Positions 2,839 through 38,684 of a DNA stretch of 64,000 nt are shown piece by piece. The notes under the pieces are model-generated. The model was not told where the DNA came from and did not search any database. It worked only from the letters and a program-made list of their open reading frames with translations. This DNA comes from Chiloscyllium plagiosum (lineage: Eukaryota), in contig NC_057759.1 of assembly GCF_004010195.1 (NCBI RefSeq), positions 7,051,346 through 7,115,345 of the forward strand. The letters run 5' to 3'. The position numbers and the translations under genes were made by a program. How positions within the stretch are numbered: the stretch's first letter is position 1; each line of letters begins with the position of its first letter.

Positions 2839-2958
2839 TTACTTGCGTGGAATATTTGCATAAATGTTTTCGTCTGTCCTATCATCTTCTTGCGAGGATT
2901 CGCTGAGTTTCAGTGTGGCGTATGTGACACAATATTCATCGTGGTCAGTCTTGGCACC
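2839..2958 (-). CDS. FCRL-like terminal coding exon with VTYATL and NIYANI
   Basis: aattgcag|GGT ... AAG TAA; encodes GAKTDHDEYCVTYATLKLSESSQEDDRTDENIYANIPRK*. Confidence 0.85.
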   Translation of the reverse strand, partial: GAKTDHDEYCVTYATLKLSESSQEDDRTDENIYANIPRK

Positions 2959-5457
2959 CTGCAATTGAATGATGTCAGAATGAAATTGGAATCGAGTGGG
3001 AGCAGGAAGGTGAAGAGGAGGGAAAGGTCAGTTGGGGTACAAGTAGCAGTGAGTATCAGGGGGAAATGGAAATCACCAGCGGGCCGTTGAGGCATTGCGA
3101 GTTAGAAATCTGGTGGCACAGTGGTAATGTCCCTACCTCGGAGCCAGGAGACCAGAGCTCAAGTCCCACACGCTCCTGCGGTGTGCCATATAGTTTATAA
3201 AATCAGGAAGGTAATGTTGAGCTGGACAGGACTTTGCTGAGGGTAGAGCTGAAACGCTGCTCAATTCCAAACTCTGTACTATAGGAAGGATATGATGGTA
3301 CTGGAGGGATGCAGGGGAGATTCACCAAGATGTCCCCTGGAATGGAGCACTTCAGCGATGAAGAGAAGCTGAATAAGCTCGGCTAAATTTCTTTGGAGCA
3401 GAGAAGGCATGTGTGGATTTGATTTTTCTGTCATTCATCTATGGGACGACGGCATTCCTGGCTGGGCCAATTTATTGCAGTGTCTGTAGTTGCTTCCTTG
3501 AAAATGTGATGGTGACCTGCCTTCCTGAGCCAATGTAGTCCCACTTGTTGTAGGTAGACTCAGAATTCACTTAGGGAGGGAATTCCAACATTTTGGCCCG
3601 GCGACACTGAAGGAGTGGCTAAATGCTTTTCCCAAGGATGGAGACTGGCTCAGAGCAGAACTCACAAGGGGGGTTTTCATCTCCAGCTCTTGTACATCGA
3701 GATAGAAGTGATTGTGGGTTTGTAAGGTGCCATCTGAGGACCTTTGGTGACTTTGTGCAGTGCATCTTGGAATTGCGACACGTCACTGCTGCTAATTGCG
3801 TGCAAATGACAATGGGTAGTTGGACGTGTATTGATAAACAATGAGCGCTCTACTGCGATCGAAGGCAGACACAGAACTGGGAGGGAGGGGGAACTGTGAA
3901 GGTGGATTCCAAGTTGTTTCAGAGTGATTTAGACAAGTTGAACAAGTGAGCCAACGCATAGCAGATGCGGTTTCATGTGGATCAGGGGAAGGTTATTCTT
4001 TTGAGCACAAAAACACGAAGGTTGATTAATTTCTGAATGGCAATGTCTGGGAAAGGGGGGAATGTAGTAAGTCACTGAAAGTGGGCATTGCAGGAGCCGC
4101 AGGTAGTGAAGAAGGTGAATGGGATGTTGGCCTTCTTAGTGAGAGGATTCAAGTCCAGTAACAGAGATGCCGTGCTGCGATTGGATGGGGTGATATGTTA
4201 TCCTGGTGTATGATCTGTGCAGTGTTGGGTCTCCTTATTTAACGAAAACGTTCTGGCTATGAACAGAGTTTCCCAGACAGATTCCTGGATGGCAGTACTG
4301 ACGGATGGAGACAAACCTGAACAGTTAGGTTTATATTCACTGGCATTTGGAAGAATTAAGGGGAATCTAATAGAAATCTACCAAATGCTAAGAGGACTAA
4401 ACAGGGTAAACACAGGAAGGATGTTCCCGATGAAGAGGAGAGAGTACAGTATCGGGTATTACAGTCTAAAAGAGGCAGGCTAGGACTGAGGTGGGGAGAA
4501 ATGTCTTCACCCTGAGAGTGGGGAGCATGTGGAATTCCGTGCTGCAGAAAATGGTCGGGGCCAGGACACTGAATGTTTTTCCAGGAGGAGTTGGATAGAG
4601 TGCTTAGGAGTAAAGGGAGAGCATGGAGGGAGTGTAGTACAGGGGACTGAATTGGATGACCTTATTGAATAGGGAGAGTAGGCTGGAAGATCTGAGTGGC
4701 TTACATCTGTTCCTACTTTCTAAGATAAATATTTTGATTAGTCTGATAAGTGTCAACAATTCCCTTTTACACTGTGGATGCTACCTACACTTTCTGTGGC
4801 AATAGCCGTGTTCTATTTAGACTTAAAACGTAACATACCTTCTTCCCATCGGAGGAGACACCAGGACTGTTGCCTGAAAATAAAAAGAATTAGGTGAGAA
4901 GAAACACTTTGCAGGCATTAAGAAATCGAACCGGACTCACTGAGGGCTTATCAACATCAAAGACGCAGCTGAAACATTCAGTAGCGTAGCTGTGCATTAA
5001 CCAACTTTTAAAACATAATGTAACACTTTCCTGGCCCTCCCAATCAATCCAGACCTTTCAGAATATCATGTTTAGAAAACTCGCTGTTTAAAGTCTTCAA
5101 GTTGTATTTAAATCATTAAGAAAGAGTGTTTTTCTTAACGATGCGGCACAGTGCAACACATTAGGCAGACCGTCTTAATCGCATCAGCCTTTGTAGCACT
5201 TGCCTGGCTGTCATACTTGAAATTACAGGAGTGAACCATGTAGATGACGTACATTAGGGTTTTAGCCGTTGTATGATGTTAGTTCCAAATAGTTCAACTG
5301 ACTGGATGGATGGCTTTTGTCATGCATTACATGCCAAATCTTGGGAATAGTGTGGGCAAAATTCCAACACCAGCTGAAGTTACCCTGAAGGACTCTCCTT
5401 CTGAACCTCTGCCCTCTCATGGGGAATGATGACCCTAATTTAAACCACCTCCAAGTC

Positions 5458-5501
<44 letters not shown>

Positions 5502-8500
5502 AGGGAGCAGGATGATAGTCTGGTAGAACATGACGATTTATTGCGCATCCGTCAAGGCAAAGACTAGAATGTGTTCTGAGATTTCATGTACATTATGTAC
5601 AAATGTTCCTTGCGGGTGTTCACAACTATCCATGTGATAATTGTTAATCGATCTTTTTGAGCAACAACTAACATGCAGTGTTTTTATTTTCTCTGTCATC
5701 TCCAATCAGTAGGTGATAGCACTTGGGAAATTGTCTTATCTTGAATATTAGATAACAAAAATAGCACTTTCTTTCTCTCTCTACACAGATGCTACCGGAC
5801 TTGTTGAGTTTCCCCAGCACTTTCCGTGTTTATAACCATAACACTAACGCTGTTTCTTTTGCTCTTCACAGATGCAACCAGAGCTGTGAAGGTTCTCCAG
5901 AAATGTCTGAGTTTATTTCAGCTCTCCAGCAAATGCAATTCTTAGTTTATGCGAAGTTTCTTTTTTCTGCCTCAGTTAGGAGTAAAATGCTCACCCCATT
6001 GCCTTTTTTCACGCACACAACGTGCAAAAAAGTAATTGTGAAGCAACCAGCATCGTAACCCACCCAACAACACACACGACTATAATCTTCTTTATTTGCT
6101 CTGCGTGTGTGTTCTGAATCGCTGACAACATATAAACCACCTGCGAAACGTTTATCTTTATCCTATCTGCAGGAGAGTAAACATACAGAGCAGATCAGAC
6201 TGGGGCTTGTTTCCGATCAGCTGATTCATTCTCTATTCCTCGTCAATGCTGCAGATTCCTTTTGGCAGATCCTCTGTTCCCTTACAATCGTGTCACTACA
6301 AATACTGTAATATTTCTGTGTTCTGAACTGGTCTCACACACAGATATTTCCACAGCAACTGGGTGGACCCTGTTATTTCTGGAGGTACAATGATTTCCCC
6401 TCTCTCACACTCAATCATAGAATTGAAGAAAAGAGATTTTTACCAGCCTCCATTGTTTTCTTGATGGTGACCACTGAATAAACCAGATCCGCAGAGGTGT
6501 TTTCTACAAAGAAATGCAGTACACAGAAGAAGCACCCATCAATGAGACAGCTTCATTATAATGGGCTAAATGATACATAGATTAGATAGATTAATGTACG
6601 ATGTAGATATTATTAAGACTGAAATAGATAGGGGCTTGATTTAGTAAGGGGAATCAAGGTTTATGGGGAGAAGGCAGGAGATTGAGGTTGAGAAATATAT
6701 CTGCCGTGTTTGAGTGCAAGCGCTGACTCGATGAACTGAATGGCCGAATTCAGCTCCTATATCTCATGGTCCTATCCAGACAAACAGATAAACATGCATA
6801 ACGATAGATACCATTTGTGATAACTGCGTTAGCTAAGATTACTCGAAGGCTACTGTACAGGAAACATGCCGCTCTTAGTTATCGTTAGCTCGAAGCCCTT
6901 ATGTGACTGAGGAAGCGGATCTTTGTAGTATTCACTCATAGTAACCAATGTCTGTTGGATTTCTTAACACCAGAGTACTGCGCCTTCAGTTTCGAATGTT
7001 ACTTAATGTAATTCATCTCTGGACTCTTTTTCACCATATATAAGGCACAAGTCAAGAGTGCGATGGAATGCTCCCCACTTCCCTGTATAAATACAGCCCC
7101 AACAACACTGAAGAAACTCGACACCATCACGGATAAAGCAGCCCACTTGACTGGCACTACATCCACAAGCTTCCACTCCCTCAAGCAATGATGCTCGGTA
7201 GCAGCAGTGTGTACTATCTCCAAGCTGAACTGCAGAAATTCACCAAAGCACCTTCAAAAATCATGAATATTTCCATCTAGAAATACAAGGGTAGCAGATT
7301 TATGGAAACACCACCACACCTCCAAGTCACTGACCATCCTGATTGGAAATACACCGTCATTACTTCACTGTCGCTGGGTCAAAATCCTCACATTCCCTCC
7401 CTCATGGCACTGTGGGTCACCCCACAGCAGGTGGACTGCAGCGGATCAAGCAAGTAGCTCATCATCACATTCTCAAATGCAATTCGGGACAGGCATTAAA
7501 TGCTGGGCCCTGCCAGTGACGCCCACATTCCACAAAGTGAATATTTTAAAAAAAAACTTGAGATAAAATAAACTATGCTGGGGCAGGTAAGCCAATCTGA
7601 TGGAGATCCAACCACAGGTTATTAACAGCAGGAGCCGTCTGGAAAAAAAGAGGTCTTTAGCACAGAAAAATGCCAATCGAACAATCGAGTCTGTGCCTGT
7701 CAAATCAGCCACCTCACTATTCTCTAATCACATTTCCTGAGCACTTGGCTCATAACAAATGCATATCTAAATCCTTCTTAAATGTGATAAGGATTTCTGC
7801 CTCTCCCACCCTTACAGGCAGTGAGTTCCAGATTCCCCACTACTCTCTGGGTAAAAATGTTTTCCTTCACAGCCCATTTACATTCAATCTATGCACCTCC
7901 CCGGTCATTGATCCTTCCATCAAGAGAAAAATATTTTTTTCCTTTCTACCATATATATGCCTCCTCATTATTTAATAGAACTCAACAAGAATGAGTTGGT
8001 GTCTTTGGGGTTAAAGGGATTGAAGTTTACAGGGGAGAAAGCGGGGAACTGGGGACTAAATTGGATAAAGAGCAGTGATCCGATCAAGAGGGCGGAGCAG
8101 GCTAGAAATGCCCAATGGCCTACTCCTGTACTCCAGCTTCTGTATTCCCCCTCAGCCTCTGCAGCTCCAAGGAAACCCGTCACACGTGAGCCCATCTGAT
8201 GGCTCAGATGTTTATCCATAACTTCTACCAGGTCATGGTGCACTGTCACTGTGTGGGGCTCATTAATCAGACCGATTCAATGGCACTTACCAGTATTCTG
8301 TGCTGCTCCAACTGCTGCATACTCTAGATTGCTGACTGCTGCCCCTTCAACAGAAGGTTGGGATCTAGTTCCAGTAGAAAGGGGAAGGAAACTAAATCGT
8401 CATTTCGAACAAAATGCTTGTAACACAATGTTCGAATTCAACAAAACGGCAAAGCTATCACAGAACATACAGAAGCCAGCGAGACCGGCTTTTCCCTGAT

Positions 8501-11500
8501 CCCACGTTCCTGGTTTCCAACCGAACGTTGAGTTTTCTAACCCACAAGGAGCCGCCAAATGTACTTTGGGAAAGAAAATATGCCGCCCTTAACTGGTCTG
8601 GCCCTGCATGTGACTTAAGACCGTGGTTAACTACAACTGCCAACTAGAGCAATTAGAGATGGGCAATAACTGATAGCCCACATCCCTGTGAATGAAGTAA
8701 AGGCATCTGGGACTTTCCTGCAATATGGTTTGCTAGTTTGTTAATTGGACTTGTGTTTAAAGGATGCACTCATATTCAAACTCCCTCTATGACCTCTCCA
8801 CTTTGGTCGTCTCTCCCTGATTTAGAGGGATCAGGATAAACGATAGCAAATATAAAAACTGTAGTTTCAGTCACTTACCTTCTGGGCGGTGACACAGTTG
8901 AGGAATTGCCTGCAGAGAAAGAGAGAATATTCTCCGCATATTGTACTGTAACTTTGCATTTTTAGAGACAGGAGCTGCCAAGACGTTATCTTATTCATAA
9001 ACGGGAAACAAAGAGATCAATAGATGAGTTGAAAAATGTGGTGCTGGAAAAACACAGCAGGACAGGCAGCATCCGAAGAGCAGGAGAATCGACGTTTCGG
9101 GCATAAGCCCTTCTTCAGGAATCAGGCTAGTGTGCAAAGCGGGCTGAGATAAAGGGTAGGGGGAGGAAATTTGGGTAACGGCGCTGGGAATACGATAGGT
9201 GGAAGGAGGTGAGGGTGAGGGCGATAGGCCGGAGAGGGTGTGGGAGTGGAGAGATCTGGAAGAAGATTACAGGTCAAGAGGGCAGTGCTGAATCAGGGGA
9301 TTTTATTTAGTCACAGTTCAAAGAGAGTGGGACAGGAAAGTGCAGTTGAGGTGAAGATGAGATCGTATTAAGTAATGGAGCAGGATCCTGAGGGGCAGAA
9401 TACCCTCCTCCTGTTCCCGATTCTCATGATCTTATGTCTCTCCTTCTCTCTGAGGTGCTATAACACAGAGTGGTGGTGGGTCACCCGATCCAGCAGGCTA
9501 ACATTGTGAATGCAGTTCCTCCTATTGTCAGGAACACAGCCCATCCCAGTTCCCAAACCAACATCGCCTTCCCCCCGGTCAGCTGAAAGGTTACAATGGG
9601 GCGGGGACGACAGTGTCATGATGTGGGGATGTTAAACAAATCCCATTCCCGTGGGATGTTACACACCTGTGTCTCTCCTCCGGTGGATGAAGCGCACCAA
9701 CACGATCAGGCTGGCAAGCAGCAGAACTGGGAGGAGTAAGGCCGCGATCTCCATGTAATAACTCCGAGCTGAAATCCAACACGAATATTCCACTCACATT
9801 AACAAATTCACCAGATTGTTTTACTACATTAGCTCTGTGTGAGGTACTCTGTCCCCATCAGACAGAACAATCCCCCACAGCTATGTAACACCCTGTTACA
9901 ATGCAGGTATCGTGAATCACACTGTGAGGGAGAACTCAGTCCATTGAGCTACCGACAAAAAAATCCCACTTTCCCACACTAACAGCCCACAGCCTTCAAT
10001 GTTACACACTTCAATTGTAATAAGGGACTTTGACATTTGTGAGGACAGCGTGAAACAGACTGATCTGCGAGATCAGGTTGATGATAGGAAGGAGTATGTG
10101 CTAAAAGTTTGAAAAACATAAGGATATCTAAATTCCTTGGGTGGGAATGCACATACCCTAGATCACTTCAAGCAGTGAGGGAAGAGATTGTTGAGCTATT
10201 GGCGATGATCTTTGCATGCATATTGCCCACTGGAACAGTGCCAGATGATTCGAGTGTGGCAAATGTTTTTCCCTTGTTCAAGAACGGGAATAGAGATTAT
10301 CTTGGGAATTATGGACCAGCTAGATTTCCGGCACTGGTGGACAAAGAATTGCAGAGAATTCTGAGACACGGGATTTATGATTACTTGGGAAACCATAGTT
10401 TGATTAGAAATTGTCTGCATGGCTTTGTGAGGGGCAGGCCATTCCTCACAACTTTATTGAATTCCTTGTGGGTATGACAAAGCGCGTTGATGAAGGTAGA
10501 GTAGTGGATGTGATGGAAAAGGACTTTAGCAAGGTGTTTGAAAGATTCCCCATTGCAGACTTATTCAGAAAATAATGAGGCATGGAATACAGGGGAGATC
10601 TATGATTTTTGAGAAGGTTGTATCTCAGGTTATGGTTCAGGTTGTAAATTTGCTCACTGAGCTGGTAGGTTTGATCTCATATGGTTCACTACCATGCTAG
10701 GTAACATCATCAATGAATCTCTGGTGAGTGCTGGTGTTCTGTCCCGCTTTTTATTTATGTGCCTTCGTCTGTTAAGGAACGTTATATGATTTTCCCTGCT
10801 TTTTGTACAAAAATTGATAAATGGGGACGAAATTGATGTGTTTATTACTGGAGTTCAGTTTGAATTCCAGGTCTCTAGGAACTCCCATGCGTGTCTTTGC
10901 TTCTCCTGTGTTCGGATGGATGGGATTTTCCAGTCTGCCCTTCGTCATTTATGTATAAGGATACCAGTGATAGCTGGTCATGTCTTTTGGTAGCTAGTTT
11001 GTGCTCATGTATGTTCGTGGCTAGTTTCCTGTCTGTCTGACCGATGTAGTGTTTGTTGCAGTCCTTGCATGGTATTTTGTAAGTTACATTCGTTTTGCTG
11101 GTCCTTTAGGTTAATCAGTAGTTGCCTCAGTGTGGTGGTAGGTTTGTGGGCTTCCTGCCTGTCTGGATACAGAATTGGCTGGCCCATAGAAGACGGAGGA
11201 TAATAGATGGAAAACATTCAGCCTGGAGCTCCGTGACCAGTGGTGTTCCATAGGGATTGCTTCTGGGAACTCTGTTCTTTGTGATTTTTAGAAATGACTT
11301 GGATAAGGAAGTGGAAGGGTGTATTAGAAAGTTTGCTAATGACACGAAGGTTGGTGGAGAGGTGGATTGTGTGGAGTGCTGTTATAGATTGCAAGTAGAC
11401 ATTCACAGGATGCAGAACCGGGCTGATAAGTGGCAGATGGAGTTCAAACTGGAAAAGTGTGAAGTCATTCACGATGGAAGGTCGAACTTGAATGCAGTAT

Positions 11501-14500
11501 ACAGGGTTAAATTCAAGATCATTGACAATATTGAGGAAAAGAGGGAGTTTGGGGTCCACATCAATGGATATCTGAAAGTTGCCTCTTAGGTTTACAGGGT
11601 TGTTAAGAAGGTGTATGATGTGTTGGTTTTCGTTAGCAGGGGGATTGAGTGTAAGAGCTGCGAGTTAATGCTGCACCTCTATAGACCCCTATTTAGACCA
11701 CACTTGGAATATTGTGTGCAGTTCTGCTTGCCTCGTTGTAGGAAAGATATGGAACCTTTTGAAAGGATGCAGAGGAGATTTACCAGAATGTGGCCTGGAC
11801 TGGAAGATTGAGGGAGCGAGGGATTTTCTCATCGGAGCTAAGAAGTATGAGAAGTGACTTGATTGAGGCGCACACGATGAGAGGCATAGATCGGATGGAT
11901 AGCCAGAGATTTTTTTGACACGACGGAAATGTCTATCACTAGGAGGCATAATTTTAATGAGATTGGAGGAACATTTAGGGGAGACGTCAGAGCTAGGTTC
12001 TGTACACAGAGATTGCTGGGTACGTGGAATGTACTGCCAGCAGTTGTAGTAGAGTCAGATACATTAGGAACATGTAAACGATTCTTGGATAGGTGATATA
12101 GGCACATGGAAGTTAGTACAATGAACGGTATGTAGGTTAGTCTGATCTTAGAGTAGGAAAAATGGCTGGCAAAACATCGAGGGCCGAAGGGCCAGTACTG
12201 TGCTGAACTTTTCTATGTTCATCCAAATACGTTTTTCAAGGTGGGAGGTTTCTCCCCTCAACTACACTCCCAGGCAGTGCTTTCCAACCCCCACTACTGC
12301 CAGTGTGAAACAATCCTCAAATCACCCCGACCCTCTTGGCTTTCACTTTAAAATGATGACCCCCATTCCCCCTAGTTACTGACCCTTCTACTGAGAGTAA
12401 CCACTGCTTTCTCTCTCCCTTCCATGTCCCTCATATTTTCCACACCTCTCTCAGGATCCCCCCTCAGCCGTCTCTCCTCCATAGAAGACAACCTGAGATT
12501 ATCCAGCCTCTCTTCATCGCTGAACTGTTCCATCCCAGGCCACATCCTGGGGAATCTTCTCTGCAGCCTCCCTCTACAACACTTACAGTTCCACATTTTT
12601 TATTGTGCTCAAGTTCCATCATCTGGGCGGGCTTTGAACTGGGTTTCTGGGAACATGACTAAGGTTGTTAGATTAATAATCTTACAGCCATACCACCCGT
12701 GCCTTCGCTTCCCCTATTGAGATGTTTAACTATTTCTGACTGAAACGGACTGGATCGACCAAATGGTCTTTCTCTGTGCTCTATGTTCGATCTGCCTGTC
12801 ACTGTTACCTCGCAGCGTGAAATTGATAGAGTTGCTGGTCACGTTGAAAATGGTGTTGTTGGTTCCTTTGTTGATTGCTGCACAGTGATACTTCCCGACA
12901 TTGTCTCTCTGGAATGAATGAATAACCAGTTCACTACCATTGGCAGTCACATGGTAGCTTGCACTGCCATTTCTCATCATCACGTTGTCACGGTACCAAA
13001 CGAACTGGGGCTCAGTGCCTTCCTTCACCAGACACTGGAGAACAAGACGCTCCCTGGACTGTATCTCAGTGCTGTTAGTGCAGGAAATCAGCATAGCATC
13101 TGCGACAGGAACTGAGGAGAAACCACAGGGAGATTAAAACGATAGAGATGCCCATCGATTCAGACTGTCAGTGAGAATCAGTTTGATGTAATGAATTTAA
13201 AAACATTCCAATGGCTTCAAAAGCTAATGAAGAGTTTTAACTCCTCCAACTATTAACACTTGGCAGTTATCATTGAGACACAATCTAACATTGCCCATTG
13301 ACGTTCAATCGAGTTTCAACCACTGAGTCCCCTCACTGTCAACATCCTAGAGATCATCGTGGAGAGATAATTGAAACATTGATGTTCAGTAAGGGCATCG
13401 CCCTTGATATTCAATGACGTTGTCATTACGGAATACTCCATCATCAACAACCTAGGGGTTAAAATTTAGAGAAAATTTAACCACAACCTTCTTTGAATTC
13501 AATGGTGTTGCCCATTACTGAATCTCCCACTATCAATATCCTTGGGAAGGGTTACCACTGGACAGTCATTGAGTCAGACAGCGCATTGGCCCATTGAATC
13601 TGCACTAACAAAGATTACCATTAAAGGAGCGTTGTTCGCAATTTCCTGCCCTTGTCCCATATCGTGGAATGTTATGGTATGACAAGTGTGCATCCAAATA
13701 TATTTTAAAGCTTATATGGCTTCCGCCCTGCGCTACCTTCCCAAGCACTTTATTGCAGATTCCCACCACTCACCAAGGGAAAAAGATTTTTCCCAAATTC
13801 CCTCCGAGATTTCTGCACCTTACCCTAAAACTATGCCTCCTTATGATTGACCCGTCAACCAAGGGGAACGGCTGTCCTTTCTCCTCATAATCTTATACAC
13901 CGCAATCATGTCCCTCCTCAGTCTTCTCTGCTCTAAAGAAAACAAACCAAGCTGATCTAGTCCCTCCTTATAGTTCAGTTGCTCCAGCCCAATCTATATC
14001 CTGACGACCTCTAGCGCTATCACATTCTTCCCGCAGTGAGGCGACCATAAATGCACACAGTACTGCAGAATCGAACAATTGCCCTTGATGTTCATCACTG
14101 AAATCCACCATGATCAATATCCTCGGGGTTGCCATTGAGAGAGAATCAAGCCATTGTTCACTTGATGATCAATGGTGCTGTCGTTATTGAAACCTCTCCT
14201 ATGTCAACATCCTTGGATTTCTCATTGACCAGAAACTAAACTGTTCGAGCCAGAGCAATACTATAGCAGCAACGACAGGTCAGAAATTTGAAATCCTGCA
14301 GCGAGTTATTCACTTCCTGATTCCACAAAGCATGTTCACCACCGACAAGGTACAAATAAACAGCGTGATGGAATATTCCTCTGCATTGTTGCAAATGCAG
14401 CAACACTCGAAAATCTCAGCATCATCCGGGTACAAAGCAAACCCCGCTTGATTGGCACAAACTCCAGAAACATTCACTTCCTTCCCCACTGACGCTCTGT

Positions 14501-23500: not shown

Positions 23501-26500
23501 TTATGAAGCTGGAAAGGGCTTAACAGGATGTTATCGAGACCGGAGGGTCTGAGTTATAAGCAGACACAGGTTAGGCTGGAACTTATTTTCCTGGATTGTC
23601 AGAGGCTGAGGACCTCGTAGCAGTTCATAATATCACGAATGGCAGAGATGAAATGAATAGACAAGATCTTTTCCCCAGGGTAGGGAAGTCCAAAACTAAA
23701 GGCCATAGCTTTACACTGAGGGGGGAAACATTTAAAAGGAAAGTGAGGTCAACTTTTTCACACAGTGGGTATTGCATATATTGAAGGAGCTGCCAGATTA
23801 ACTGGTGGAGACTGGTACAAGTACAACATAAAAAAGACATTTTGATACGTATATGGACAGGAACACTTTAGATGGGTATGTGCAAAACACAGGCAAGTGG
23901 GACTAGTTTAGTTTAGGAAACCTGGTCGGCATGGACGAGTTGGCCAGAAGGACCTGCTTCCGTGGTGGAGTCAATGTTTAGGACTCTCAGGGCTGCATGG
24001 TATTCACTGTACAACAATGCCACTTGGGGATCTGTCCTGCTGGAAGAATAGCACCACCAACAGCGTGGGTTCAATTCCTGCACTGGCTAGAATCACCGTG
24101 AAGGGCTCTCCTTCACATCTATCGCCTGTTCCAATGTGTAGTGATGCTCAGATTAAACTGCCACCAAATATCCTCTCCCTAACGATGCAGAGTGACTGTG
24201 GTGGCTTTACTATCTTTCCCATTACTCATAAGCCGGTAAAAGGAGCGGGATTGACAAAGGGCGCACAGAGAGTATTCTCCTCCAGTGGGAGAATCTTGAA
24301 TGCGAGGTTATCATTTCGGGATAAGGGAGTGTGACAGACTAAATAATGAAATTAGGAAGAATGATTTCTCTCAAAGGAGCGGGCGGCGATGACTAGAGAG
24401 TGAATAAGCTTGGGTTGTTTCCTCTGGGGTAGAGAAGGGTCTTTGGTGGGGATGGCGAGGCGGGGCGGAGGGAAAAGTGACCTGGAAGAGATGTGTAGGA
24501 TTTTGAAAGATATGGACTGGGGGGAAGCAACTATTCCCCTTAGTCAAAGGGTCAATAAGTTGGGGGTGGGGTCATCATTTTTAAATGAAAGGAAGAGAGG
24601 GATTTGAGCATAGTTTCACCCACAGGTTACTGGCAGTCTGGAATTCTCGGACTGAGAGGGTAGCTCAGGAGGGTAGCCTCATAAACTTTAATTGGATAAG
24701 CACTTGAAATGCCATAACTGTCAAGGCTGTGCGGCCTAGTGCAGGGAAGTGGGGCGAGTTTTAATTTAGTTTTGCTTTGGCAGTACAGACATAATGGACC
24801 GAAGGGACTCATTGGTACTGCATAATTCAGAATGTCTCCAATGTTTAAATCAACCCTCTAGAGAAACATAAACATTTTCTCCCGCAAATTGTAACATGTA
24901 CCTTGAATCTGAACATCAAAAGACTGTGATACGGATAAATTCTACAGCTGTACAATCCACTGTCATCAGTGCTGTTTATGTTACTGCTATGAGAAGATTC
25001 ACGTCTTTTAGACTTCATTGAATGAGTTTTCTCGACTTTTTTTTTATTAAAGGTAAATTCTCTCTCCCCCTAAAAATTGAATCCATACTGACTATTCAGA
25101 ATCACTGTCACTCCTTCCAAAGGTGAACTGTGACAACATGGAAAGCCATATCTCTATCTCAGACTGAAAGAAAAGTTGCATCATTACAGCTCATTTCACT
25201 GGTAACTGCTCCAAGCACATTCACCATCACATTCTTTCTGGAATGGATTTAGAAGTAACAATTCAGTCAACATATCCCCGAGATTTTGCACAATCTGGTC
25301 TGAATAAATAAACTTATAACATGAATTTGCTTTCATCTCACCTTCAGAATTGAGTATGGTTTAGGTCTTCTTACATACGAAATTACATTAAGACAATAAG
25401 AAATCAGGACAAGGATATTCAGCCCCCTTGTCACTCGTAAAGTGTCGAGTAATATCAGTTAGAAAAATTTCCTCTGTCAGCAGAAATGAAATGCAAGTAG
25501 AGGTGCGGAGAAGACGTACAGATGCAACATGAGGATTGAAGCATTTTAACAAAACGTTATCAGAGTAAAAGACAAGGACAGAAAATATTACAATAGCAGA
25601 AAGATGCAGACATGACTGCACAACCATCAAGATAAATCGGTGGAGGACTGACAATTCTTAATGATCTTATATGACATTCTCAGACTTCAGAGTAAAGGGT
25701 TCTGTAGGCAATAGCGATCATAAGTTATTGTTGACACAGTTACTTTGATAAGAAAACGAATGGATGAGTTGGTAGAGAAGGGAAGGGCAACGCTGTCTGT
25801 GTGAAGGCACCTCTCCTCATCTCAGTTTTACTCCAACTCCTTGACACTGTGAAACCCTGCTTCTCGACATCCACTCACATTCCAAGTGTCACTGGGATCA
25901 TCCTTCTGGCGTTTACAATGTCTAGTCATATAGTCAAACAACATGGAAACAGAGCCTTTTGTCCAACAAGTCCACACCAACCATGTTCCCAAAATAAACT
26001 GACCCCACAAACCCGCATTTCCAAAACTTTCCTACTCATGAATTTAGGAGCAAGTGAGGACTGCAAATGCTGAAGATCAGAGTCGAAACGCGTAGTGCTG
26101 GAAAGGACATCAGGTCAGGTAGCATCCGAGGAGCAGCATAAGTCAGTATTTCAGGTACAAGCCTTTCATTAGAAATATGGAGGGGGAAGGAGGCTGAAAG
26201 AAAGAAAGGGCGGTGGGCGTCGGACAGGGTGTAAGGTAGCTGAGATGAAGATTGGTGAATGCAGGTGTGGGGTAGTTATGACTGATCGGAGGGGATGGTG
26301 GAGCAGGTATGTGGGAAGGAAGATGGACAGGTTGCACAGTTCAAGAAGGCAGTGACAAGTTGGAAGATTGGATTTGGATGAGCCGGAGAGAATAGATTTT
26401 GAAACTAATGAAGTCAATGCTGATACCATGTGGTTGAGGCTCCCAAAGTGGAAAATGAAGCGTTCTTCTTCCGGTTGGTGGGTGGCTTTGATTTGGCAGT

Positions 26501-29500
26501 GAAGTTGGCCCAGGACTTGCATGTCCTTGGCAGAGTGGGAAGGGGAGTTGAAGTGGTTGACCACAGGCCAATGGGCGTTTTTGGTATGTTTGTTCCAGAG
26601 ATGTTCCCTGAAATGCTCCGAGAGTTGACATGCTGCATTACCGATGTAGAGGAGACCACATCGAGAGCACAGACACAGTAGATGAGCTGGGTGCATGTGC
26701 AGGAAAACCTCTGCCAGATTTGAAAGGATCCTTTGCTACTTTAGAGAAAAATGAAGGAGGAGATGTGGGCGAAGGTTTTACACCTCTTGCGGTTTCACAG
26801 GAAGTTGCCAGGTGTGGAGGATGGATTGGTGGGCAGGGGAATATAGACTAATGAGGGAGTCACAGAGAGAATGGACTCTGAGGAACGCAGGTAGGGGTGA
26901 AGACGGAACTATATGTCTGGTGGTGGGGAGTGATTGTAGTTAGCGGAAATGGAGGAGGATAATGCACTGTATCCAGAGATTAGTTGTGGAAAGTGTGGAA
27001 AAGCGGGATTTTTTTCCTTTGTGCGGTTGGAGGGTTGGAGTTCAAGGGCAGAGGAGCAGTAAATAGAGGAGATGCGTTGGAGGTCCTTTTTGATCACGTG
27101 TGAGGGGAAATTATGATCCTTCAATTCGGAGGACATCTGTGGTGCCCTGGCGTGAACTTATCCAAATATCTTCGAAACATTGTAAGTGTACCTGCATCCA
27201 TCATTTCCTTTGGCAGATCATTCCATACACCAAAAACTCTGTGTAAGTAAAAGCTGCCACTAGTGCTGGTTTCAAAGTTTGAACTCCGCACCCGGGGGCA
27301 AAGACCCTTGTAATTCACCTTACCTATGTCCGTCATGGTTTTGTAAGACTCAATAAGGTTACCCCTCAAACTCCTTTGATGCAGTGAAAAATGCCCCAGA
27401 TTTTCCAATCTATTTATATATCGCAACCCTCCATTCCCAGCAACATACTTGCAAATATCATCAGTACCTTCTCTGGTTTAACAATATCCTCCCTATTACA
27501 GAGCGACCAGAACTGCACTCAATATTCCAGAACAGACCTTACCAACACCCTATACAATCTCATAATGGCACCCCAACTTCTGTACTCAAAAGTCTGACCA
27601 ATGAAGGCAAGCATGATAATTGCCTTCTTAACCATCCTGTGACGCAAATTTCAAAGAACTATTTAACTGAACCTCTATGTCTCTCCGTTCCACAACACTA
27701 TCCAAACCGCTTCCATTACTTGCATCAACTGGGTCTTTATATCACTTATACACTTATCCAAATTTCATTCCACCTGCCACTCCTCCGCCTATTGATGCAA
27801 TTCATCAAGACAAAAATTTTCACGATGCACTATACTAACAATTTTGATGTCATTTGCGATCTTACTAACCACGCCTTCAATATTCTCATCCAAATCATTT
27901 ATATAAATGACAAACTGCAGTGCACCCAATACCGATCCCTGTGGAACACCACTGACCACAGGCCTCCAATCTGAAAAAAAAGCGTTCCACCATTACTCTA
28001 TTTTCTGCTGTTAAATCAATTTTGTATCCAATTGGAAAGCTCACCCGGAACCCCATGTGAGCTAACTATACTAATTAGTCTACCTCATTCTTCTCTACTA
28101 AGGTGAGTTTAACCCTAATCATTCCAGCCTCCATTTTCTGTCAGTCCTGCCATCCCAGGAATCAGTCTGTGAAACCTTTGCTGTCCTCCCTCCATAGCCA
28201 GAACATCCTTCTTCAGATACTGAGACCAAAGCTGTTCACGGAATACTCCAGTGTGTGGTCTCATCCTTTACAATTGCTGTAAAAAAAAAATTATATTCAC
28301 TCATGGTATATGGTCATCACTAACTGGCTAATATCTACAGATTTGTCTCTAGTTGCTCACTTGAAAGGGTGGTGGTGAGCTGCCTTCTTGAATCAATGGG
28401 TCCATGTGCTGGGGAGAGATCCACAATGCCCTTAGGGAGAGAATTCGAGGATTTTCACAAAGCAACATTAAAAGAAGTATTGACATATCTCCAAGTCTGG
28501 ATCGTGAATGGCTTAGAGGGGAACTTTGGAGGGGGTCATGTTCTCATGTATCTGATGCCCTTATTCTTCTAGATGGAAGTTGTCGTGCGTGTGGAGGGTG
28601 CTGTCAGAGGATCCTTGGTGAATTTCTGCAGTACATCTAGTAGATGGTACACACTGCTGCTACTGAGCATTGGTGGTGTAGGGAGTGCATGTTTGTGGAT
28701 GTGTAACCAATCAAGCGTTTGCTGCTTTTCCCTTGAACGGTGTTGAGCGTCTCGAGTCTTCTTGAAACTGCACGCATACAGGAAAGTGTGGAGCATTTCA
28801 TCACTCTCCTCAATTGCAACTTGTCGATGTTGGACAGGCTTCAAGGAGTCAGAAAATGAGCTTCTCACTGTCGGATTCCCAGCCTCTGACCTGCTCTTGG
28901 AGTCACTGTGTTTATGTGGTCAGTCCAGTTGGGTTTCTGATCAACAGGATGTTGACAATTGGGGATTTAGAGATGGTAGCAATATTGAATGTCAAGGGGG
29001 TGATGTTTCAGTACTCTGTTATTGGTAATGGTCAATGCCTGGCATTTGAGTGGCACAGATATTATTTGCCACTTGGTAGTCCAAGTCTGTTATTGTCCAG
29101 ATCATGCTGTAATTGAAAATGGACTGCTTAAGTCTCTGAGAAGTGGTGAATTATGCTGAACGTTGTGCAATCATCAGTGGACATTCCCACATATGACCTT
29201 ATGCTAGAGTGAAGATCATTGATGAAGCATCCCTGCTCCTGTCCTTGAGTCTCCATCACTGGGAGGTCTTGTCAAGAGCAGCGTACACAGACGTGGCATA
29301 GAATCATCAATACGTTCATCAGCACTAACTAAACAAAGGAATGACCAACCTGATACTGTGAGGTTTATGATGTTCGAAACCCATTTTCTATAGGCAATTT
29401 TTAACTCACACCGATAGAGTGCTTCATCTGAAAACGCTGCACTTTCTATCGTGAGTGACTCGTACGTAGCTTTTTCCATTAACCTATTATTTCGATACCA

Positions 29501-32500
29501 TCGGAACCACTTTCGTCCTCTCGGGTTCTGGGATGGAGTCTGGCAGGTCATTACAATCTTCTCATATCTCAGTGCATGTTGTGGTTTTACTTCCAGAGTT
29601 AGAGCTTCGTCAGAAACTGCAAAATAATCGTGAGCAAAGTTGGACACAAAATCAGATCGGAATACAACAAATTACAGTTGAAAGATCAAAGGCATTGGGT
29701 TCAAGGTGACATCAGACTGTACAAGACCTTGATCAGGTTATTTTCTTTAGCAGAGGGAGGATTGGTGGCTGGGAATGGGGGTACTGACAGAAATGTGTAC
29801 GATTCTGTAGGGCATGGACAGAATAGATTAGAAGCAGCTGATCCCCTCAGTTGAAGGTTCAATAATAAGGGGGGCATCTTCTTGAGGTGTAAGGCAGGAT
29901 GTTTAGCGAAGGATTTCCAGATTGTTCTACCCAGAGGATGGTGGGCGTTAATGACCCAGCCTTCACAGCTCTCTATAATAAGTAATTCCACAGATAGGAG
30001 CCTCCCCCCTCTCCCAGACTCTCCCACAAAAGCTGAAACAAGCTCTCTCCGCATCTCCCCTGCCAAGTCCCTGGAAGGATCTTCATTCTTCTAATCTCCA
30101 ATGAGCTGAAAATGTGTTGCTGGAAAAGCACAGCAGGTCAGGCAGCATCCAGGGAACAGGAGAATCGACGTTTCGGGCATAAGCCCTTCTTCAGGAATGA
30201 GGGACGAAATGTCCATTCTCCTGTTCCCTGGATGCTGCCGGACCTGCTGCGCTTTTCCAGCAACACATTTTCAGCTCTGATCTCCAGCATCTGCAGACCT
30301 CACTTTCTCCTCAATAATCTCCAATGAGGACAGGCTTAATCTACTTGACCTCTCCTCATGAGAAATCATCAAGTCCCAGTCCAGGGACCTAACCTTAAGG
30401 AAGTGGCTTATGTGGAAAAATGCATACTTGGCTGAACATGGTCTGGGTGGTCAGGAAAAACGTAAAGTCAATGGTTATTGCACCTCCATATGGCGTTCTC
30501 CGATTAACGTGAAGTCAATCCACACTACATATGACTCCAGACCCAAAGCAATGTGGTTGACACTTAACTGCCTTTGGGGATGGGCAACAAGTACTTGCCG
30601 AGATAGCGATGCCCTCATACCATAAATGAATTTTTAAGAAGTACACTTACTGGTCACGACGCCTTTTCCAGGTATCATGCAGTACTGTGAGAAAGTTGTG
30701 CTGCAGCAGTAAAACCCACCAGTTTCTCTATTAACAAGCATTTCAACAACATTACGCTGTGTCTCAATGATTTTCACGCCATTTTTGTACCAATAAACCG
30801 TTCTTCCTTTAAGTGTTCGGCATTCCAATTTTAAAGTCTCTCCTTCTTTTACGAATCCACTTGAGGGATATACATAAATCGTGTCCCTGCCAAAAGCTGA
30901 AGCGAGAGAGAAGCAAGAGGATTGTGAATCCAATCATTGCATCTTGTTGACCTCTCACTATTATAAACACAGTGTGCAGTTCAGCCTCAGTGTACTGGCA
31001 TACGGTACATTGAGCTTTATTTCACCTTGACTTCTGACCGAATAATACAGGAATAAAAAAAGGTCTGAACTTGATGCATTTCATTGGCAACTAACCCTGG
31101 ATTTCTTGACATATCATTACTGTGACACCAATCATTTAGCGAGTTTCATTTCTTTTTGAATGGCTGATCACTGACAGGTATCAGTGTATCTGCTTCTTAG
31201 AAGAGTTAACTACACCGAGTATGTTTAGCCATAAAAAAACAGCTTTATTACAGTGTGAAACGTTTTCAGTGATACCCAACGCTTTGGTTTAATCTCAACT
31301 TGACCAGTGAACCTCAAAGGAGAAAACGTCCAAATGTTTTCTATGTTCTGCCGAAGACGGCCCCACCCCACGCAAATATTACTCAATTTACCAGGCAGAG
31401 ACAATCTCCAGTAAGAGAGAATCCAAACATCGCCTGTTGACGTTCAATGATGTTAGCATCAACGTACCTCCCATCCCTTGTACATTTGCAATAAAACTTT
31501 GTTATTCTGATCCAAACCCTTGAAATAAGGACCAACATTGCCTCCGCCCTTCCTGATTACCTGCTGCCTCCGATGTGCTAGCTTATTGTTTTTCATGCCC
31601 AGGTACCTGCCAAGTCTCCTTGTATTGCAGCTCTCTGACGTTTCTCTCCATTTAAATAATACAATGTTCTCCTGCTCAAAATGATCGTAAAACTGTGTTT
31701 TCCCAAACACCCTGTTTTAAATCGCATGCCCATTTGAAATATAGTGTTGGAGTTAAACTTTGATTCAGATATGCTGAATGGACTCTACCCAATGTGACCA
31801 AGTCTAAGAAAATGGCCATTGGTTGTCATTGTAACTGGTGGGGTATCCTCCATGGAAAGAAGTTAAAAATGATTCTGATGTTTCAGAGACAAAGCCTAAC
31901 CTTGGACCAGAAAGACTGGAATCAAATTCCATTCGATGCAAATTTTGAAAAGTACGGAGAACAATTGGGGCCAGCAAGTCTCCAAATTTCCAAATGGTTT
32001 TGCAAAAAATTTTCAATTCTTCCTACCTTGGATGATCCCATGGAGCGCAAGATTCACTGGAAAACATAAAGGAATTGAAGTGTAAATGCCATTATTTCTG
32101 TCAGTGTCTTCGAAACAACAAGGCAAAGACAATATCAAAGCAATAAAATTGGAGAAGCAGCAGCGAAGCAGCAAATTCCATGACTGTTACTCAATGGGAA
32201 CTGTTGACTCTTTAGCCTCATTGAAGTCGGTGTGGAAATATGAATTGCGTGATGACCCCTTCAGCTTCTCGCTCATCTTTCATTCTAAAATCAATTTTTG
32301 CTTTGTACCTTTCTTCTCTTATTTGCCCCTCATTTTTTACTCCTGTTTTTTTCTCTGCTCAGGTTCCCATTCCATGCCATTCTTTTTTAACAAATAAATG
32401 GAACTGTAAATCTAGATATGTTTTGAAAAATGAAATACGAATTGAAAAGACTACTGTATAAGGAATCACGTTCACATAACTTTCCATTTCTTGCCTCGAA

Positions 32501-33672
32501 TACGTTCTCGGAAACCCCGAAAGTTAGTCAAGACTTACCAAGGATCTCCGCACTGAGGCTTCTGGTTTAGGGACAAGAGGCTACAATTACAGCAGGTCTC
32601 CTAGTGTAACATCTCTGATCAGTTTCAAGATGCATACACATCTCCCCCTGCATCTAAAGAATCTTCACGGGAGAGCGAGGGCTACTTTCAGCTTAACTGC
32701 AGAGCTAGAGAGGTCAGAAGCCCAGGAAAAGGCCCATGATGCCATCATCTCAGAACTATACAAAAACAGCCAAATCACTATTCTCTGAACCAAATTCCCC
32801 AGCACTTGGCCCAAAGCCTTGTCATCGCAAATGCATATCTAAATACTTCTTCAATGTGATGTGGGTTTCTGCCTTTCTCACCCTTACAGCTAGAGTGTTC
32901 CACATTTTCTACCACCCTCTGGGTGAAAATCTTTTTCCATATATTCGCCTCTAAACCTCCTGGCCTGTACCTTTAATCTATGCCCCTCTCTAGGTCATTG
33001 ATCCCTCCCGGAAGGGGGAAAGCTTTTTTCCTATGTAGCCGATGTATTCTCCCTCATCATTTTATACATCCCAATCATGTCCCCTCCCACTCCCCATTCC
33101 TCTCTGCTCTAACGAAAATAACCTCAGTCTGTCCAATCTCTCTCAGTCATTGAAACCCTCCAACCCACAAGGCAACAGTCTGCTAAATCTCGTTATGTTT
33201 ATGAAAAATGATGGTGTTTCCTTTCACTGCTCAGTGAGATTACTTGCCCTCTATCTTATTGGACATTATCCTCCGTTTGGCGGGTTCTGAAATTCTACTG
33301 ATCCATCCATGACTTAACATTTTTGGTTTGCATGTAACATGCATCCTTTTCCGCAAAGATCAGATAATATTGCACTAAGTGGAATCAAATAACAATAATT
33401 GAAATATTCAATTCTTCCTCTCTCTCTCTCTCAGTTTTGAAATGCTATCATCAAAGCTTCTAACACTTTGTTATTCCCGATTTTTTCAAAGATTTTTTTT
33501 ATGATGGGCGCAGCAATTATTTTTTGCACTTGAGGAACTGCGAAGGAAGTGTCGGGTTATCTGCAGTAGAATAAAACTTCACGTGACCGGGCAACAGAGC
33601 AGGTTTGTCAGGGACAAGATTCCATTGTAACACACACTTACACAGGATAAAAAGCACGGAGATCTGCAACAT
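2839..33672 (-). CDS. FCRL: Fc receptor-like (FCRL-family) inhibitory-type Ig-superfamily receptor; join(33642..33672,[32539..32559],30651..30896,29350..29616,21675..21953,20676..20948,16914..17198,12809..13111,9667..9768,8879..8909,8291..8364,6444..6503,4839..4873,2839..2958); 708 aa with mini-exon S2, 701 aa without
   Basis: All exons except S2 have GT-AG boundaries with mutually compatible phases and join into one open frame: leader, 6 Ig domains, TM, and a tail with Tyr motifs. Domain starts (SDEALTLEV, ERFAKPLL, RIPVSKPLL, VPVADAML) and the 31-nt + 21-nt split leader resemble FcR/FCRL genes. Family-level call only; orthology to a numbered mammalian FCRL cannot be assigned. Confidence 0.85.
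4839..4873 (-). CDS. FCRL-like cytoplasmic exon 4: GNSPGVSSDGKK
   Basis: tttattttcag|GC ... AAG|gtatgt; 35 nt, phase 1 to 0. Confidence 0.8.
5460..5495. repeat. (TC)n microsatellite (others at ~35352, ~38651, ~52818, ~62707)
   Basis: Directly visible dinucleotide runs. Confidence 0.95.
6444..6503 (-). CDS. FCRL-like cytoplasmic exon 3 with ITIM LVYSVV
   Basis: tttctttgtag|AA ... GCT G|gtaaaa; 60 nt, phase 1/1; encodes ENTSADLVYSVVTIKKTMEA. Confidence 0.82.
8291..8364 (-). CDS. FCRL-like cytoplasmic exon 2 with ITIM LEYAAV
   Basis: aactag|A ... ACT G|gtaagt; 74 nt, phase 2 to 1; encodes RSQPSVEGAAVSNLEYAAVGAAQNT. Confidence 0.82.
8879..8909 (-). CDS. FCRL-like cytoplasmic exon 1: GNSSTVSPPR
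   Basis: tctttctctgcag|GC ... AG|gtaagt; 31 nt, phase 1 to 2. Confidence 0.8.
9030..9295 (-). mobile_element. Penelope-like terminal fragment
   Basis: Same gtgctggaaaa..cagcatcc..gaatcgacgtttcgggcataagcccttcttcagg terminus and purine-rich tract as the copies at 26.1 and 44.9 kb. Confidence 0.75.
9087..9122 (-). ncRNA. Minimal hammerhead-ribozyme-like motif (PLE-associated)
   Basis: Minus strand: ATTC-CTGAAGA-A-GGGC ttat GCCC-GAAA-CG-TC-GATT. Confidence 0.6.
9667..9768 (-). CDS. FCRL-like transmembrane exon: ARSYYMEIAALLLPVLLLASLIVLVRFIHRRRDT
   Basis: atttcag|CT ... ACA G|gtgtgt; 102 nt, phase 1/1; hydrophobic run followed by a basic stop-transfer segment (HRRR). Not the frame shown in the ORF track. 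Confidence 0.88.
10020..12220 (+). mobile_element. CR1 LINE fragment interrupted by a nested Penelope-like insertion
   Basis: VANVFPLFK, KFANDTK, HLEYCVQF; the CR1 sequence breaks at ~10598 and resumes at ~11159. Confidence 0.9.
10600..11158 (-). mobile_element. Penelope-like element fragment (GIY-YIG region), nested in CR1
   Basis: Minus strand reads AHKPTTTLRQLL, then (frameshifted) NVTYKIPCKDCNKHYIGQTDRKLATNIHEH. Confidence 0.85.
12809..13111 (-). CDS. FCRL-like membrane-proximal Ig domain 6 exon (101 codons)
   Basis: ttctcctcag|TT ... CGA G|gtaaca; encodes VPVADAML...LVLQC...FVWYRDN...NVGKYHC. Confidence 0.92.
16060..16800 (+). mobile_element. CR1 3' fragment (homologous position also at ~53850-54350)
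   Basis: Similar to the CR1 3' ends elsewhere in the window. Confidence 0.8.
16914..17198 (-). CDS. FCRL-like Ig domain 5 exon (95 codons)
   Basis: ttttcag|GA ... ATA G|gtgagt; encodes IPVSKPLL...SLICSVSNGSLPIYYQFYKD...HEGFYHC. Confidence 0.92.
17491..17698. mobile_element. Short hairpin (inverted pLTR) Penelope-derived insertion with 14-bp TSD
   Basis: Inverted arms ctgaaaatgtgttgctgg... / ...ccagcaacacattttcag; direct repeat agaacaagaagaag at 17477-17490 and 17697-17710. Confidence 0.85.
17606..17641 (+). ncRNA. Minimal type I hammerhead-ribozyme-like motif (PLE-associated)
   Basis: ATTC-CTGAAGA-T-GGGC ttat GCCC-GAAA-CG-TC-GATT: intact CUGAnGA and GAAA core, 4-bp stem II, palindromic ACGU at helix III. 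Confidence 0.6.
20676..20948 (-). CDS. FCRL-like Ig domain 4 exon (91 codons)
   Basis: attccag|AG ... AAG C|gtgagt; encodes AFALPMLKI...VKLVC...LRYSFYRNG...DSGTYHC. Confidence 0.9.
21675..21953 (-). CDS. FCRL-like Ig domain 3 exon (93 codons)
   Basis: attccag|AA ... AAA C|gtaact; encodes ERFAKPLL...FEGLWLTLTC...LHYTFYRD...SGSYACEA. Confidence 0.9.
22675..23009 (-). mobile_element. HE1-type tRNA-derived V-SINE, full length
   Basis: A box TGGCACAGTGG, B box GGTTCAATTCC, V-domain (gtggagtttgcacgttctccccgtgtctgcgtgggtttcctccgggtgctccggtttcctcccaca), CR1-like 3' end and (taatc)n tail. The 5' 12-mer is duplicated. Confidence 0.93.
24902..25163 (-). pseudogene. Decayed Ig-domain pseudo-exon inside the FCRL-like gene
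   Basis: ttttctttcag acceptor and caag|gtacat donor. Pieces read SPLEGVTVILNS, TDDSGLYSC and VSQSFDVQIQ. The exon has stops (TGA 25161-25159, TAG 25072-25070), frameshifts, and AGT in place of the B-strand Cys. Confidence 0.7.
26046..27148 (-). mobile_element. Penelope-like element 3' portion with GIY-YIG endonuclease remnant
   Basis: CSRCGLLYIG...HFREHL...VNHFNSPSHS...EEERFIFHFGSL, followed by the same terminal sequence found in the other PLE copies. Confidence 0.85.
27150..28085 (-). mobile_element. CR1 fragment
   Basis: Reverse complement carries the PQGSVLG, DDIKI and EYCVQFW-type segments seen in the other CR1 copies. Confidence 0.8.
28290..29235 (-). mobile_element. Old LINE fragment of a second CR1/L2-group family (related pieces at ~7000-7545, ~14220-14810, ~18340-18960, ~3420-3800)
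   Basis: Shared motif ...gcagcagtgtgtaccatctac...gcagaaattcaccaa... recurs between these loci; no intact ORF. Confidence 0.65.
29350..29616 (-). CDS. FCRL-like Ig domain 2 exon (89 codons)
   Basis: ttttgcag|TT ... TCA G|gttggt; encodes IVMTC...WYRNN...LTIESAAFSDEALYRC. Confidence 0.88.
30106..30314. mobile_element. Short hairpin Penelope-derived insertion with 14-bp TSD
   Basis: Same inverted arms; direct repeat taatctccaatgag at 30092-30105 and 30315-30328. Confidence 0.85.
30163..30198 (-). ncRNA. Minimal hammerhead-ribozyme-like motif (PLE-associated)
   Basis: Minus strand: ATTC-CTGAAGA-A-GGGC ttat GCCC-GAAA-CG-TC-GATT. Confidence 0.6.
30651..30896 (-). CDS. FCRL-like Ig domain 1 exon (82 codons)
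   Basis: ttcag|CT ... ACC A|gtaagt; encodes EGETLKLEC...VYWYKNG...GGFYCC. Confidence 0.85.
32539..32559 (-). CDS. FCRL-like 21-nt leader mini-exon S2 (C)LSAEIL(A), in-frame acceptor defective
   Basis: GC CTC AGT GCG GAG ATC CTT G|gtaagt completes the signal peptide MLQISVLFILCLSAEILA, but it is preceded by ...ccagAA rather than AG. Confidence 0.6.
33642..33672 (-). CDS. FCRL-like coding exon 1 (leader S1): MLQISVLFIL, phase 1
   Basis: Minus strand reads ggaaATG TTG CAG ATC TCC GTG CTT TTT ATC CTG T|gtaagt: 31 coding nt, hydrophobic, with a perfect donor. Confidence 0.8.

Positions 33673-38649: not shown

Positions 38650-38684
<35 letters not shown>

Follow-up and report, generated by a model that had tools for sequence, protein, structure and literature searches.

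A bamboo-shark gene named PECAM-like is most likely an inhibitory Fc-receptor-like gene

Do cartilaginous fishes have receptors of the Fc-receptor-like (FCRL) family? A passage of a 2014 survey reports no FcRL in shark genomes (PMC4016189), a passage of a 2026 review describes cartilaginous fishes as being without FcR-like genes (PMC13337447), and both raise the question of how these animals handle antibody-driven functions. The gene described here lies on the minus strand of a 64,000-nucleotide stretch of the Chiloscyllium plagiosum genome, hereafter the window (contig NC_057759.1, here C50; G000:C50:7051346-7115345). The gene runs from window position 33672 to 2839 and is already modelled in full by RefSeq, under a PECAM-like name. 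Based on its sequence, this gene is most likely a true inhibitory FCRL that was mislabelled as PECAM-like. We put the probability that it represents a shark member of the FCRL/XFL family, likely dampening B-cell signalling, at about 0.78.

Gene structure and expression

The gene comprises 14 coding exons and 13 introns, all GT-AG and with matching phases, which yield one open frame of 711 amino acids (aa) between an ATG at 33672 and a TAA ending at 2839. Two leader exons are followed by six single-exon phase-1 immunoglobulin (Ig) domains, one transmembrane exon and five cytoplasmic exons. A preliminary description of the window had set the limits of the gene exactly at this start and stop codon, and its account of GT-AG introns, matching phases, a single frame, single-exon phase-1 Ig domains and a two-exon leader agreed with ours. 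Its count of 13 exons has to be raised to 14, and the second leader exon, for which it gave 21 nucleotides (nt), is 30 nt long. The translation is letter-for-letter identical to RefSeq XP_043539714.1 (Chiloscyllium plagiosum 'PECAM-like isoform X1'), one of five isoform proteins; the others lack domain 1, lack domains 1-2 or begin internally. The features in window coordinates, with their evidence in brackets, are:

33642..33672 (-), leader exon 1, 31 coding nt with the ATG and a phase-1 donor (exon chain; RefSeq isoforms X1, X3, X5)
32027..32056 (-), leader exon 2, 30 nt (best-scoring candidate; RefSeq isoforms X1, X3, X5; match in the neighbouring paralogue)
30651..30896 (-), Ig domain 1, short and shark-specific with a weak resemblance to FcR D1/D2 (missing from RefSeq isoforms X3 and X5)
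29350..29616 (-), Ig domain 2, shark-specific with a weak resemblance to FcR D1 (missing from RefSeq isoform X5)
24905..25163, ends approximate (-), decayed Ig exon of FcR subtype D2 (tblastn, DNA identity, tree of intact paralogues)
21675..21953 (-), Ig domain 3, assigned to FcR subtype D3 (profile 64 bits; tree 95/90)
20676..20948 (-), Ig domain 4, assigned to FcR subtype D3 (profile 59 bits; FcgammaRI D3 at 5.5e-12; joint with D5 in reads)
16914..17198 (-), Ig domain 5, D4/D5/PECAM-like (profiles; no tree placement; joints in reads)
12809..13111 (-), Ig domain 6, membrane-proximal, assigned to subtype D6 of Xenopus XFLs (profile; tree 99/99; joints in reads)
9667..9768 (-), transmembrane exon without the NxxR activating motif (exon chain; joints in reads; helix 577-602 in the model)
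8879..8909 (-), cytoplasmic exon 1, 31 nt (exon chain; reads)
8291..8364 (-), cytoplasmic exon 2, 74 nt, Tyr631 in LEYAAV (exon chain; reads)
6444..6503 (-), cytoplasmic exon 3, 60 nt, Tyr649 in LVYSVV (exon chain; reads)
4839..4873 (-), cytoplasmic exon 4, 35 nt (exon chain; loose end of a run X2 contig at the donor of cytoplasmic exon 3)
2839..2958 (-), last coding exon, Tyr685 in VTYATL, Tyr705 in NIYANI, stop (exon chain; RefSeq; related exons elsewhere in the genome)

The preliminary description had named junction reads as a check, and splice joints of the gene do appear in assembled reads. Read contigs were placed on window positions 5520-22600, which wholly contain seven splice joints. 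Among the joints listed (15 of 46 rows), run X2 showed six of these seven, at a depth of 228-440 vs 5-44 for intron contigs, and the D3-D4 joint was not among the listed rows; two of the seven were present in run X1. One run X2 contig ended loosely at the donor of cytoplasmic exon 3, and its loose end was cytoplasmic exon 4. Run X2, which has no library type on record, is taken as RNA because the introns have been removed exactly. For the 5' joints (leader to D3) and the last joint the RefSeq models are the sole source. The locus is a real gene, intact, expressed and spliced, and it encodes a type I membrane protein that has six Ig domains outside the cell and four tyrosines in its tail. Run X2 further differed from the window by an Ala-to-Thr change in domain 5 and a silent change in domain 3 (window 17136 and 21895).

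With 31 + 30 nt the leader is spread over two exons, as in the two-exon signal peptide that PMC2413239 describes in its passages on the FcR/FCRL (XFL) family. The 30-nt exon was the best-scoring candidate for the second leader exon, and a matching exon is present in the neighbouring paralogue. As candidates for a 21-nt exon, 16 AG-(21 nt)-GT/GC windows occurred between the first leader exon and D1, none of them convincing.

Family assignment of the Ig domains and the tail

For classification, 220 domains were taken from 34 proteins; 47 were dropped as redundant repeats, leaving 173 for two quick trees, and 76 were used in a careful tree. The profiles for domain scoring were built from bony vertebrates only, shark sequences excluded, and the PECAM comparison set held no full-length mammalian or bird PECAM1 and only a partial coelacanth sequence. 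The careful tree recovered a D3 clade (95/90), a D6 clade (99/99) and a D2 clade (97/96), with zero PECAM domains in each, and the two quick trees gave the same three groups. Domains 3 and 4 of the shark protein clustered with the D3 domains of tetrapods and paddlefish (95/90). Domain 6 joined the domains next to the membrane in the frog, caecilian, turtle and paddlefish proteins (99/99), a group to which the larger trees added kiwi. The profiles agreed: domain 3 scored 64 bits as D3 vs 28 for the best PECAM profile, domain 4 scored 59 bits as D3 vs 22, and domain 6 scored 68 bits as D6 vs 27. On visual comparison domain 6, which carries six N-glycosylation sequons, also resembles the D6 rows that PMC2413239 gives in its supplement; a passage of that paper calls this subtype Xenopus-specific. 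One extra cysteine was seen in domain 6, and two near the end of domain 1, the latter missing from seven fetched paralogous exons.

In the structure database, one collinear stretch of the protein matched human FCRL5 domains 1-5 with 116.7 bits, FcgammaRI matched at 4e-14, and domain 4 matched FcgammaRI D3 at 5.5e-12; of the 68 matches, the 60 best, which were listed, included no PECAM1 chain. Domains 1 and 2 scored only 0.4-6.6 bits against PECAM d1/d2 profiles, and a domain search of the protein did not find PF17736. An N-terminal, sialic-acid-binding V-set domain, as in CD22/Siglec, was not found either: domain 1 is a short C2/I-type domain with 38 residues between its cysteines and no V-set match. 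The AlphaFold whole-chain model was uninformative on family (mean predicted local distance difference test 64.6, predicted template-modelling score 0.36, domain 6 poorly modelled), and so was a Foldseek search with it (template-modelling scores of at most 0.26, generic multi-Ig matches).

The transmembrane segment is uncharged and lacks the NxxR motif that marks activating XFLs in passages of PMC2413239. Inhibitory members combine an uncharged transmembrane segment with one to five separate tail exons bearing YxxL/I/V, and the shark gene has five tail exons with four such motifs. Its tail aligned tyrosine by tyrosine with five of nine tetrapod FCRL tails (Z 5.9-10.6: turtle 10.6, caecilian 9.4, lion 7.9, Pseudophryne 7.2, kiwi 5.9), the other four giving Z 0.2-3.4. 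Four shark and ray PECAM tails gave Z 0.3-1.2, and a tetrapod tail profile scored 37 bits with the shark receptor vs 8-13 with PECAM and 21-22 with teleost CD22/LITR-like tails. This conservation spans sharks and rays to tetrapod FCRLs. ITIM-like hexamers (ITIM, immunoreceptor tyrosine-based inhibitory motif) were rejected as evidence in themselves: the three frames of the coding strand contain 12 of them over 2839-9666 vs a shuffled mean of 19.5, a count below the chance level. The case for the tail rests on splicing and conservation. Because the transmembrane segment lacks NxxR and the four tyrosines are conserved, the predicted role of the receptor is inhibition by way of SH2 phosphatases. 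No activating partner with NxxR was seen among the shark proteins inspected, no systematic search having been made. A single transmembrane exon of the T-cell-receptor-zeta/FcR-gamma type was found in the genome (G000:C12:49769721-49769807), which may be either of the two.

Several observations weigh against the assignment to the FCRL family. Domain 5 scored 62 bits with shark PECAM d4 vs 39 with FCRL D4/D5 and was not placed in the tree; domains 1 and 2 joined no bony-vertebrate subtype, so that three of the six live domains (1, 2 and 5) stayed unplaced. The domain trees are unrooted, and the careful tree has only 86 columns and a bootstrap that was not fully settled. Three approximately unbiased (AU) tests did not reject a PECAM placement (domain 6 p=0.053, domain 3 p=0.37, domain 5 p=0.48). 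FCRL5 as top structure match was dropped as proof since shark PECAM has the same best match (4e-64). Squirrel FCRL5 scored 183-192 against shark PECAMs vs 140 against the receptor, and guinea-pig FCRL3 138-171 vs 138; the tails of squirrel FCRL5 and devil reached only Z 0.2 and 2.7. The leader of 31/30 nt departs from the 30/21-nt rule. In passages of PMC2413239 that rule holds for mammalian FCRL1-6 and only a fraction of XFLs, and since it does not hold throughout the family, it does not define membership outside mammals. Run X2 lacks an RNA record, its library type being read from the exact intron removal, and single-cell runs X8 and X9 contained zero joints, 254 of 255 X8 reads fitting only in part.

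The surroundings of the gene lend the assignment no support. In humans, the SLAM/CD2 family, IGSF9, DUSP23 and TAGLN2 are markers of 1q21-23 near the FCRL genes. Probes for this neighbourhood placed zero markers on C50, and SLAM was not found in the synteny probes of the genome. Among markers with a human 1q23 position, UFC1 and nicastrin lay on the small contigs C95364 and C88014, PIGM on C29, and calponin-repeat genes and the zeta/FcR-gamma exon on other chromosomes.

Weighed together, these data leave membership in the FCRL family well supported, short of proof. The preliminary description had suggested a cartilaginous-fish FCRL with an inhibitory tail, and domain trees, profile scores and tail homology support it. 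The per-domain phylogeny that it proposed separates the domains of the receptor, with 3, 4 and 6 falling among FcR/FCRL subtypes, 5 scoring best as PECAM and 1 and 2 unplaced.

Ligand, B cells and alternative origins

A seventh Ig exon, which the preliminary description did not mention, is found between those for domains 2 and 3 (about 24905-25163). It is dead, with a frame break and an in-frame stop, and is absent from all five RefSeq isoform proteins. It was detected by tblastn with paralogues (44-63%) and shares 75% DNA identity over 244 nt with the intact exon of the neighbour; intact paralogous versions group with bony-vertebrate FcR subtype D2 (97/96 in the 76-domain tree). Paralogues P0027, P0009 and P0017 have kept this domain. 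The neighbour is P0011, an intact convergent paralogue (G000:C50:6969345-7000936, +) named 'HSPG core protein-like' in RefSeq. At its locus, a D2-type exon is open in the DNA (6980468-6980821), yet missing from the P0011 protein.

The preliminary description had proposed IgM, IgW, IgNAR or another immune ligand for the receptor. The dead exon bears on the leading alternative, in which the gene encodes a genuine inhibitory receptor for the Fc part of shark IgM, IgW or IgNAR, comparable to FcgammaRIIB or human FCRL5; we consider this unlikely. According to passages of PMC12757038, human FCRL5 contacts IgG via the D1-D2 boundary, D2 and D3, whereas the shark gene has lost its D2-type exon; because that exon is dead, the antibody-binding idea is weaker for this gene. 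The same source gives FCRL5 as the one of six human FCRLs (FCRL1-6) that binds polymeric IgG, and mouse FCRL5 as binding neither IgG nor IgM. Among paralogues, the mean ratio of nonsynonymous to synonymous change (dN/dS) was 0.65 for domain 1 (21 pairs) and 0.39 for domain 4 (28 pairs). No mean exceeded 1 as under positive selection, single pairs doing so in 2 of 21 for domain 1 and 0 of 28 for domain 4. The outer domains diverge faster than the inner ones, which is expected of domains that read a ligand but not of a receptor for a conserved protein of its own host. Nor would a tail that inhibits promote opsonic uptake. Fc binding by this receptor is a doubtful prediction; a ligand other than antibody, or coupling to the B-cell receptor that needs no ligand, is, taken jointly, the likelier and probable case. 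The gene appears a poorer candidate for an Fc receptor than its D2-bearing paralogues.

A role in B cells is suggested by the supplement of the bamboo-shark cell atlas (PMC11372145), in which the RefSeq name of P0011 is a B-cell marker (43% vs 3.7%) and LOC122544513 'PECAM-like isoform X5' is another. A further point against our reading is that LOC122544513 fits any of three paralogues, the receptor gene or two others.

In established FCRL and ITIM signalling, Src-family kinases phosphorylate the tyrosines, SHP-1/SHP-2 or SHIP is recruited and activation is lowered. By analogy, the shark receptor would co-cluster with the B-cell receptor, its tail tyrosines would then be phosphorylated by Src-family kinases, and the phosphotyrosines would recruit SHP-1/SHP-2 or SHIP and lower B-cell activation. 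The two outer, fast-changing and shark-specific domains may read the ligand, with D3-D3-D5-D6 as a stalk.

A second alternative sees the gene in a sister lineage that split off before FCRL, LITR, PECAM1 and the receptors of the leukocyte receptor complex separated, with FCRL-like function and no orthology. The trees leave some room for it, as domains 1, 2 and 5 form shark-only clades in an unrooted tree. Domains 5-6 of a PECAM1-type gene on contig C24 fall within the FCRL D5 clade, which suggests that PECAM1 and FCRL either have a common origin or have exchanged domains; domain types are in this way common to more than one family. A LILR-labelled gene also stands beside FcR-labelled genes on chr50 in Table S10 of PMC7677710. 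On the other side, the shark family and tetrapod FCRLs have three domain subtypes, the sequence in which these follow one another and a four-tyrosine tail in common, and neither PECAM nor teleost CD22-like domains share these features; we regard a sister-lineage origin as improbable.

The C24 gene itself (G000:C24:48062074-48096453, +) has PF17736, matches PECAM1 structures at 1e-12 and is single, with orthologues across sharks and rays, several of the shark ones named 'Fc receptor-like protein 5'. With this gene in place and with zero tail similarity, PF17736 absent from the receptor and subtypes D2, D3 and D6 common to FCRLs only, the reading behind the RefSeq name, an expanded PECAM1/allergin-1 offshoot serving adhesion with inhibitory signalling, is very improbable, in spite of the common outline (split leader, six Ig domains, transmembrane segment, tyrosine tail), the preference of domain 5 for PECAM d4, the AU tests and an ESM Atlas result in which PECAM clusters made up 6 of 10 feature rows, below four top FCRL rows.

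The paralogue cluster and comparison with known systems

The inhibitory FCRL proposed here belongs to a family of about ten copies on C50, with at least ten domain-4-like exons and at least 11 matches to the last exon, self included, some of them broken; genome-wide, 13 exons related to the last coding exon were found, self included. P0011 and a copy with a broken first domain both lie within 90 kb of the receptor gene. The latter is a divergent-subfamily copy downstream (G000:C50:7026865-7037061, -), with 57-82% identity to zebra-shark P0117 and a frame-broken first domain. In the 264 kb around the gene we found only paralogues, one G-protein-coupled receptor (GPCR) and one broken histone gene; these nearest non-family genes are a rhodopsin-family GPCR frame (G000:C50:7157656-7158588) and a broken histone H3 (about 7212576). 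Within the window, an isolated orphan fragment of a domain-5 exon (54509-54616, -; 62-69% to paralogues) lies 21 kb upstream of the start, a tandem duplication of about 3 kb (35053-38081 and 38352-41376, 90% identity) lies upstream of the gene, and remnants of a reverse transcriptase like that of long interspersed nuclear elements occupy 55.5-61.5 kb. Relatives were found in carpet, horn, cat, hound, basking and saw sharks and in two rays, domain 5 of the other 20 matched proteins having at most 73% identity to that of the receptor.

Already known were the RefSeq gene model and, in print, automatic FcR labels for shark genes: Table S10 of PMC7677710 gives, for its chr50, three genes with FcR labels and one with a LILR label (automatic annotation; this chr50 may differ from C50), and a passage of PMC11372145 names fcrl3/fcrl5 in shark B cells, orthology being untested there. 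We found no dedicated study of shark FCRLs in the open-access literature, subscription papers and bioRxiv supplements lying outside the scope. Our analysis would move the FCRL family back to the jawed-vertebrate ancestor: a family with D1-D2-D3-D4/5-D6 and a four-tyrosine tail was probably present already in the common ancestor of sharks and bony vertebrates, and the 'Xenopus-specific' D6, seen in sharks, paddlefish, caecilian, turtle and kiwi, would be ancestral. It would also account for the misleading PECAM label. The question of a shark IgM receptor becomes testable, with D2-bearing paralogues as the better candidates and the D2-less copy as a natural control, and the importance would be greater if any paralogue were shown to bind shark antibody. 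That all of this holds together, with an ancestral family, the C50 cluster as the missing shark antibody receptors and the present gene as an inhibitory B-cell Fc receptor, is a little less probable still than the Fc-receptor reading of this gene.

Among known systems, PECAM1/CD31 (shark P0216, C24) resembles the receptor in its six Ig domains, tyrosine tail and domain 5, but differs in chromosome, in its PF17736 domains, in an unrelated tail and in lacking subtypes D2, D3 and D6. Human FCRL5, FCRL4 and FcgammaRI (PDB 9loc, 9mbz, 8din) are closer, with FCRL5 domains 1-5 collinear and domain 4 similar to FcgammaRI D3; unlike them, the shark receptor has no working D2 and has a D6 not seen in the sampled mammalian FCRLs. 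Amphibian XFLs and the FCRL-like models of turtle, kiwi, caecilian and paddlefish (XP_039369031.1, XP_025934861.1, XP_030043361.1, XP_041087892.1) share D3 repeats, a membrane-proximal D6, an uncharged transmembrane segment, a two-exon leader, up to five tail exons and four collinear tail tyrosines, whereas identity is about 25% and the shark protein has two outer domains of its own and a 30-nt second leader exon. Shark and ray relatives bear automatic and inconsistent names, and the bamboo-shark copy lacks the D2-type domain of P0027, P0009 and P0017. Their FCRL2/3/5/6-like proteins (XP_038642882.1 in catshark, XP_072884648.1 in stingray, XP_069783097.1 in numbfish) show the same domain order and tyrosine tail as the receptor described here.

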